Part shown: positions 48,290 to 48,480 of the stretch, in pieces
Numbering within the stretch: the first letter of the stretch is position 1
Layout: each line of letters begins with the position of its first letter
Assembly: GCA_963805085.1 (NCBI GenBank)
Contig: CAWDTA010000001.1
Span: forward strand, 226,805 to 290,804
DNA: 64,000 nt
Direction of reading: 5' to 3'
From: an uncultured Veillonellaceae bacterium
GTDB taxonomy: Bacteria; Bacillota; Negativicutes; JARBTT01
Notes under the pieces: model-generated
What the model was told of the DNA's origin: nothing
The model's input: the letters and a program-made list of their open reading frames with translations, nothing else
Database searches by the model: none
Translations under genes and position numbers: made by a program

Positions 48290-48480
48290 TTCGTACCACT
48301 TATAAACTAGTACGAAGATAGGTTGCCGGTTGGCGAGAAGTGATTAGATGCTAGGAACAGTAAGGGGGTGTGAAGGAGTCGTATTTCCGTACGTCGACGA
48401 GAAGCACCTTGCTGTAACGACACATATGAGTGCTTATGCCGCCGACCCGCGGTCTGTCTATAGTATGTCTACAATCTGGG
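48290..48480 (+). ncRNA. Unclassified structured RNA element, copy 1 (about 190 nt)
   Basis: By hand alignment the first 53 nt differ at one position from 54159-54211. It has a 5' hairpin TTCGTAC/GTACGAA and a closing helix of about 25 bp (48316-48340 with 48433-48459). A large internal bubble contains the conserved AGATGCTAGG and AACGAC, and there is an apical CGTAT-TTCC-GTACG hairpin. Differences from copy 2 are largely pairing-compatible. Confidence 0.6.

Follow-up and report, generated by a model that had tools for sequence, protein, structure and literature searches.

The miniature inverted-repeat transposable elements of bacteria (MITEs) are small, non-coding and intergenic, they occur in tens of copies per genome, and their transcripts are predicted to form long stem-loops (PMC10969869, PMC3184786). 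IS1272 and TnSha1, two insertion sequences (IS) of the IS1182 family, insert at hairpins, which are often confirmed terminators, in both orientations and without any primary-sequence specificity (PMC4923244, PMC5678879), and in pathway b of the IS1272 model strand transfer at the 5' feet of a cruciform leads to the duplication of the entire stem-loop (PMC5678879). A third described system is bcr1 from the Bacillus cereus group, a transcribed MITE-like Firmicutes repeat of ~155 bp, in which compensatory changes keep a structure at the RNA level that is decaying in some copies (PMC3184786). Here we analyzed a repeat that is present twice in a stretch of 64,000 nucleotides from an uncultured Veillonellaceae bacterium (contig CAWDTA010000001.1 of assembly GCA_963805085.1, positions 226,805 to 290,804, in the following called the window, to which all coordinates without a locus name refer). 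A preliminary description made from the letters alone had read the stretches 48290–48480 (copy 1) and 54159–54343 (copy 2) as two diverged copies of a structured RNA of ~190 nt, possibly similar to 6S RNA or else a cis-leader or riboswitch. According to our analysis both stretches are very probably copies of a ~245-bp miniature non-autonomous transposable element of the MITE type. MITEs as a kind are already known, and what we describe is a previously uncatalogued, hairpin-targeting one.

The repeat itself could be confirmed. Positions 48278–48480 align with 54147–54343, including an ungapped part of 147 nt (48278–48424 and 54147–54293) with 85% identity, and as reported before, the 53 nt from 48290 and from 54159 differ in a single base (GGTTGCCGG versus GGTTGTCGG), while the blocks AGATGCTAGG, GAAGGAGTCGTA, GTACGTCGACGAG, AGCACCTTG and AACGAC have the same letters in copy 1 and copy 2. 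Its extent had to be corrected, as the true start is located ~50 nt further upstream and the full homology between the two copies covers 48237–48478 and 54106–54342; also the hairpin that brackets copy 1 had been missed. Copy 1 (48237–48478, + strand) is a full-length element, which was aligned with 42 other copies and matches the nhmmer profile over model positions 1–245 (E=1.5e-72), and copy 2 (54106–54342, + strand) matches model positions 10–244 (E=3e-68). Pattern searches of the window gave these two sites only, with a chance expectation of 0, and the profile of 43 copies run on the window also found copy 1 and copy 2 and no further copies.

Directly upstream of copy 1 and abutting it we read the hairpin GGGCGAACTTTGTTCGCC from the sequence (48218–48235, + strand), and directly downstream the same hairpin is found again as GGGCGAACATTGTTCGCC (48479–48496), both forming a direct repeat in which 17 of 18 positions match. 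Only the second hairpin is followed by a T-tract: together with CGTTTT it makes up an intrinsic-terminator-like site at 48479–48502 (+ strand; direct-repeat analysis and terminator scan, the latter reporting 48479–48497 and then GTTTTACTAT), which is located just upstream of ligA (ATG at 48527). Copy 1 is placed in the pcrA-ligA spacer, inside a duplicated terminator, and the hairpin at 48218–48235 is the former pcrA-distal terminator stem-loop, now parted from its T-tract.

Other genomes were searched as well. When one genome of each species was scanned for the core motif, this identified six loci in a metagenome-assembled genome (MAG) of Massilibacillus (now Anaerosinus) and one locus in a Pelosinus MAG; 26 other scan matches, which were not inspected, are in unrelated, mostly high-G+C taxa, and these matches outside the Negativicutes we take as chance matches. 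A metagenome scan with an independent 5' motif gave 60 loci with ~70 matches, nearly all from one sample, whose organism is ~87–88% identical to the window over orthologous stretches. This single organism carries more than 70 copies of the element. Within the loci that we fetched from the related genomes and the metagenome (L numbers in the following, ~880 kb in total), nhmmer with copy 1 as query found 87 hits, most of them end to end of the query, and 44 distinct full-length copies could be extracted together with their flanks. They show a mean pairwise identity of 87% (range 78–97%) and a length of 238–259 bp, ~245 bp being typical. Pelosinus and Anaerosinus/Massilibacillus are both placed in the Sporomusaceae, and the element is specific to a group of this family (Negativicutes) which includes these genera. 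Viral contigs as well as plasmid and phage collections were also searched, and the element found no match there.

In ~40 copies the homology starts sharply with CAGACTGTCGACAAAAT and stops sharply with CATAGTWTGTCTACAAKCTG (CAGACTG ... CAATCTG). These ends, CAGACTGTCGACA ... TGTCTACAATCTG, are imperfect terminal inverted repeats of 13 nt: the reverse complement of the right end, CAGATTGTAGACA, agrees with the consensus left end at 11 of 13 positions and with the left end of copy 1 at 10 of 13. In copy 1 the left repeat is CAGAATGTCGACA (48237–48249, + strand) and the right repeat TGTCTACAATCTG occupies 48466–48478 (+ strand). Between the ends there is first an AT-rich left part (~60 nt), then the nearly invariant box CTTATAAACTAGTACGAAGATAG and finally a hairpin core of ~150 nt. 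The element has no coding capacity, as frameshifting indels separate the copies even though an open reading frame (ORF) can be read through the core; a conceptual peptide of 45 amino acids used as query matched only two short hypothetical ORFs, both of them on other copies of the element, and no transposase.

Mobility can be read from the flanks of the copies. For 29 of the 44 copies direct repeats of 17–42 bp flank the element at a gap of 0–4 nt, and each of these repeats is a different, locus-specific hairpin, usually an intrinsic terminator (28 of the 29 fold at −5.6 kcal/mol or better). Shorter adjacent direct repeats of 6–13 bp are present at five further copies. Even loops that are not palindromic and stems that are asymmetric recur in the same direction on both sides, for example with 33/33 identical positions at L037, so the repeats are duplications and palindromy does not account for them. 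They have the dyad of the hairpin as their centre of symmetry, and the targets have the hairpin form in common, not the sequence. A-runs typically stand before the left hairpin copy and T-runs after the right one, showing that the sites before insertion were intrinsic terminators, often bidirectional ones. One unoccupied target is found in the window itself, where the terminator hairpin TCTGTCCCGTCGTAATTGGGACAGA (11496–11520, + strand) after the ORF 10452–11489 is intact and the element is located beside the orthologous hairpin in L050; there, a deletion between two TATTTTTA microhomologies later removed one hairpin copy and the left end of the element. Seven filled sites are orthologous between genomes, including copy 2 with L064, and the family is therefore old.

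We could also analyze the position of the copies relative to the neighbouring ORFs, which are in tandem in one direction in eight copies (>M>) and in the other direction in eight (<M<), convergent in four (>M<) and divergent in one (<M>). The orientation relative to genes is random, and divergent positions on the promoter side are under-represented, which is what insertion at gene 3' ends would give. The genes flanking the copies are functionally unrelated. Taken together, the element is or was mobile and goes into DNA at the foot of hairpins, whatever their sequence, mostly the intrinsic terminators at gene 3' ends, and the whole hairpin is duplicated on both sides, so that the target duplication is 17–42 bp long and varies with the length of the hairpin. 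We could establish defined ends, structure-specific targets, duplication of the whole hairpin and presence/absence polymorphism for this element.

With its size below ~500 bp, the missing coding capacity, terminal inverted repeats, target-site duplications, many dispersed copies and presence/absence polymorphism the element has what is expected of a MITE, and it resembles Correia/NEMIS, RUP, ERIC, QMITE and Chunjie, which are also small, non-coding, bounded by terminal inverted repeats, flanked by direct repeats and intergenic in tens of copies. In contrast to these, its duplication is not of a fixed 2–9 bp but a whole hairpin of 17–42 bp chosen by structure, and its long hairpin arises from internal sequence instead of the termini. 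The unusual traits of the element are a structure-defined duplication of variable length and an internal, not terminal, hairpin under an RNA-like constraint. No description of the family was found in the literature searched or in Rfam. IS1272 deletes or replaces its target hairpin and leaves no duplication, and TnSha1 deletes it as well, whereas our element duplicates the hairpin, in agreement with the duplication branch of the IS1272-like model; the two papers on IS1272 document only hairpin deletion or replacement (PMC4923244, PMC5678879). The likeness is one of targeting. IS1272 is an autonomous IS of 1.9 kb with 16-bp inverted repeats, and neither an IS1182-type transposase nor matching repeats were found in the fetched loci. 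Direct repeats of 0–60 bp are listed for the IS1182 family in ISfinder, which would fit the element.

From these traits we infer a transposase and hence DDE chemistry. A trans-acting DDE-type transposase would bind the terminal repeats and join the 3' ends of the element to the two 5' feet of an extruded cruciform, which corresponds to pathway b of the IS1272 model (PMC5678879), and gap repair would then duplicate the stem-loop. The insertion would part the first hairpin copy from its T-tract. As the first hairpin has no T-tract, the element is probably transcribed by read-through from the neighbouring gene, with termination at the second hairpin, or else antisense transcription from a convergent downstream gene probably runs through the element to the second hairpin.

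Both window copies fold into a long irregular hairpin, with a z-score of −1.7 for copy 1 and −4.2 for copy 2. In copy 1 this core is located at 48316–48455 (+ strand; RNAalifold consensus, pair counts and single-sequence fold; columns 99–247 of alignment A2) and holds the conserved blocks named above, and in copy 2 at 54186–54319 (+ strand; single-sequence fold and RNAalifold consensus). For 43 copies RNAalifold predicts one long hairpin over alignment columns 99–247 with 44 pairs. On the + strand 97.6% of the cells form standard pairs, which no column shuffle attains, and sliding the partner column lowers pairing to 25–48%. As the cells comprise 1559 Watson-Crick and 275 G·U pairs and 14 A·C oppositions, pairing would drop to 83.7% on the − strand. 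Double-sided changes are scarce in the predicted pairs (eight cells in seven pairs). The wobble changes between the two window copies had been described correctly, and the double change from ACAG/CUGU to GCAG/UUGC recurs in the whole family as the pair 142/202 of a helix extension, which covaries (A-U 17, G-C 8, G-U 4, A-C 2). Other members of the family do not keep the 5' mini-hairpin TTCGTAC/GTACGAA: their 5' arm is TCCGCTC or TCCGTTC, and their 3' arm is unchanged.

A separation of the pair states by frequency was informative. Among the common states, carried by at least four copies and each counted once, G·U outnumbers A·C by 14 to 1 (binomial p = 5e-4), whereas among the rare, copy-private states (at most two copies), which approximate the mutations after insertion, the ratio is 14 to 14; the numbers are small, and two exact motifs had served to ascertain the copies. 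Single-strand folding of the + strand therefore seems to have mattered in the lineages that founded subfamilies, and inserted copies, including both window copies, appear to gain pair-breaking and pair-preserving transitions equally. No effect of folding on individual copies is detectable. The core fold was probably selected in the founding lineages, as it was either needed in cis for propagation or inherited from the parent element, and inserted copies would drift neutrally as to pairing. For this RNA-like constraint bcr1 is the nearest analogue, but it has 5-bp direct repeats, a fold of two stem-loops, no hairpin targeting and a sequence unlike that of the element. The structured RNA proposed in the preliminary description is thus supported as far as the core is concerned, whose single-strand fold is conserved and whose + strand varies in ways that wobble pairing tolerates, but not as an RNA gene in two copies, given the copy numbers found above. 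That the two stretches might be a simple DNA repeat had been named there as a possible refutation, and this is half true, as they are a DNA repeat which carries an RNA-like fold signature.

It is also possible, but unlikely, that the ~150-nt core is a transposon-borne structured RNA or a folded single strand that is needed in cis or in trans for mobilisation. A core RNA could for example act as a cofactor by which the transposase is recruited to terminator cruciforms or activated there. A role in mobilisation would explain why the + strand fold is kept in every subfamily-founding lineage while inserted copies decay, and it would make the element an RNA-dependent, structure-targeting MITE, a mode that has not been described for bacterial cut-and-paste elements.

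A host function of the RNA itself has to be weighed against the transposable element. The ~190-nt RNA could be the product of a multicopy family of trans-acting small RNA genes, 6S-like or otherwise regulatory, with mobility as its means of spread, and in its favour are the + strand fold signature with one covarying pair, blocks that are invariant across genera, copies which are deleted in the AT-rich left part and still keep the core, the retention of orthologous copies across species, fewer private substitutions in the apical block and the many copies that end at a terminator hairpin followed by a T-tract. We regard it as distinctly unlikely. Private substitutions break and preserve pairs equally (14 versus 14), gene conversion among copies can mimic conservation, the copies have a random orientation with respect to genes, and a genome can hold more than 70 of them at 78–97% identity. 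A weak sigma-70-like match (TCGACA-18-GATGAT) occurs in only one subfamily (17/43 copies) and in neither window copy, and we do not claim a promoter from it. For 6S RNA (RF00013) in particular, the likeness lies in a size of ~190 nt, a largely double-stranded form with internal loops and the two copies that Firmicutes can have. But 6S RNA has one or two dedicated genes per genome, and the element, present dozens of times per genome, has the ends and the target duplications of a transposon, no conserved large central bubble like an open promoter and no hit to a 6S covariance model at E<=10. As to other RNA families, no Rfam family matches the element, neither in the window at gathering thresholds, nor with both copies at E<=10, nor in six related loci. 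For a cis-regulatory leader or riboswitch of ligA and mobAB, one aptamer would be combined with a terminator as platform in copy 1 and a ribosome-binding site in copy 2. Both window copies are indeed upstream of and co-directional with a gene and are followed by a terminator and by the mobAB ribosome-binding site, respectively, and copy 2 together with an extended −10-like motif, TGTGATAAT, is conserved in the ortholog L064. Nevertheless, this reading is already contradicted by the genomic context and is extremely improbable: the terminator after copy 1 duplicates the hairpin before it and does not overlap with the fold, no ligand-type conserved junction or expression-platform logic is common to the copies, and instead of being in the sense 5' untranslated region (UTR) of functionally related genes the element is found elsewhere between convergent genes or downstream of genes, in both orientations and beside unrelated functions. 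An interpretation as RNA gene, 6S-like RNA or riboswitch is therefore not supported, even if the fold signature is real.

The strand-specific fold constraint in the founding lineages is predicted by another mode of movement, namely mobilisation as a single strand with the core fold as recognition element, either by a Y1/HUH enzyme (IS200/RAYT-like) acting on folded single-stranded DNA or by reverse transcription of the RNA at nicked terminators, similar to short interspersed nuclear elements. Target duplications of variable length also resemble target-primed reverse transcription, and a Y1_Tnp gene is located 300 nt from one copy. However, Y1/HUH transposons lack terminal inverted repeats and do not duplicate their target, and duplications symmetric about the dyad are expected of a dimeric DNA transposase on a cruciform. 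Furthermore, the copies with an apparent 5' truncation, in which we had considered a trace of retrotransposition, have lost internal sequence and retain the terminal CAG or GTCGACA, there is no heterogeneity of a 3' tail, and the single Y1 gene in ~880 kb is not bracketed by copies, so that we consider single-strand mobilisation very unlikely. A similar comparison applies to the REP/REPIN repeats with their RAYT (Y1) partner, which are dispersed intergenic hairpin repeats often near terminators as well; REPINs are shorter, have no target duplications and bracket the RAYT gene, whereas the element has duplications and the Y1_Tnp gene has a copy on one side only. This gene encodes a protein of 252 amino acids (PF01797, IS200/RAYT-like; L094 7457–8215 on the − strand, corresponding to L076 634–1389 on the + strand).

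Several points weigh against the MITE-like transposable element as well. A related autonomous IS with matching ends is missing in the fetched loci: searches for solo or paired ends with up to 3–4 mismatches in all of them gave only remnants and a nested copy, and an all-versus-all BLAST of the fetched loci for multicopy sequences of at least 500 bp gave no candidate IS. The terminal repeats are short and imperfect (11/13), no duplication is detectable in 10 of the 44 copies, copy 2 among them, and the copies are old (87% mean identity), so that the element may no longer be active. A strand-specific constraint on folding is not expected for an ordinary cut-and-paste DNA transposon, and the density of private variants is ~2-fold lower in the apical block (0.48 versus ~1.1 per column), which could reflect weak selection on individual copies. 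Finally, only copies with one of the two exact search motifs were sampled, so estimates of conservation are biased in alignment columns 92–116 and 157–190.

For genome annotation the element is relevant as a dispersed mobile repeat that mimics a new RNA class, since its fold is conserved, wobble changes occur and a terminator or ribosome-binding site follows it; unless catalogued, it will keep resurfacing in scans of Negativicutes genomes for riboswitches and small RNAs. For the mechanism of mobile DNA, the duplications of 17–42 bp, each spanning exactly one hairpin and centred on its dyad, provide natural evidence that strand transfer takes place at cruciform feet. For gene expression it is relevant that each insertion turns one terminator into a hairpin without T-tract plus a complete terminator and lengthens a 3' UTR or operon spacer by ~245 nt, which in the window applies to the pcrA-ligA spacer and to the region upstream of mobAB. 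The family has thereby remodelled termination at dozens of loci. With the common (14:1) and private (14:14) variants it is also possible to separate selection on the propagating element from selection on the inserted copies.

The gene order in the window is pcrA (45948–48194), copy 1, ligA (48527–50554), gatCAB (50731–53941), copy 2 and a mobA-mobB fusion (54354–55424), followed by an operon for a DMSO-reductase-type molybdoenzyme. Copy 2, located between gatB and mobAB, goes back to an old insertion: its left end is degenerate, no target duplication can be recognised, and its 3' end abuts the ribosome-binding site of the mobA-mobB fusion (ATG at 54354). The extended −10-like motif mentioned above (54137–54145) is in its degenerate left part and falls into ~50 nt that are identical in the window and L064, their surroundings being ~83% identical. 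It may be a promoter for mobAB that was supplied by or evolved within the old insertion. L064 is collinear with 51744–55431 and 61555–64000 of the window, and the ~6.1-kb segment in between (55431–61555), which holds a molybdopterin oxidoreductase / 4Fe-4S / DmsC-like operon, is missing there, the indel being directly downstream of mobAB. A molybdenum cofactor riboswitch was considered for copy 2, with mobAB and a molybdopterin oxidoreductase downstream, and an NAD-related switch for ligA; both were rejected because of the unrelated contexts in which the element is found and the lack of any hit to a model. The only Rfam family at gathering score in the window is a c-di-GMP-I riboswitch aptamer (RF01051) at 29714–29805 on the + strand (70.2 bits, E=1e-11).

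Some further observations concern the element itself. The left terminal repeat (TGTCGACA), the AT-rich part (TGTCGATR) and the invariant core apex (CGTCGACG) all contain a GTCGA(C/T) motif, and the right terminal repeat carries TGTCTACA, the respective positions in the element consensus being 7–14, ~28–35, ~178–186 and the right end. These sites may be multiple binding sites of one protein, which would give a reason at the DNA level for the invariant apical block. Columns 197–208 of alignment A2 are polymorphic as a block, with form A being CTTGCTGTAACGACGCAG and form B CTTGTCG-GAGGGCGCAG. The form differs within three of seven orthologous pairs (L013/L079, L020/L075 and window copy 2/L064), and this switch at orthologous loci points to gene conversion among the dispersed copies. 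Form B creates GGAGGG, 5 nt and ATG inside the 3' arm of the hairpin; the idea that the element is a deletion derivative which still carries the first codons of a transposase was rejected, as the 45-amino-acid peptide matched nothing except the two short ORFs on other copies. The copy in L091 (10732–11078) is broken after AAACTAGT by an unrelated insertion of ~100 nt, and in L073 (~920–985) a lone 3' remnant of the element is found beside a terminator. Six copies are located in the same hairpin (CTCTCCTAATAGGAGAG) of a second palindromic repeat (L090 ~6850–7410, L039, L075 43–611, L060 ~8300–8850, L036 and L048), the ends of which are inverted copies of GGAACGTTAACCTCTC...CTCTCCTATTAGGAGAG; either two mobile repeats are nested here, or the hairpin is a hot target that has been hit repeatedly. 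The locus L090 additionally contains a c-di-AMP riboswitch (ydaO/yuaA leader, RF00379) at 1995–2137 on the − strand with 84.7 bits.

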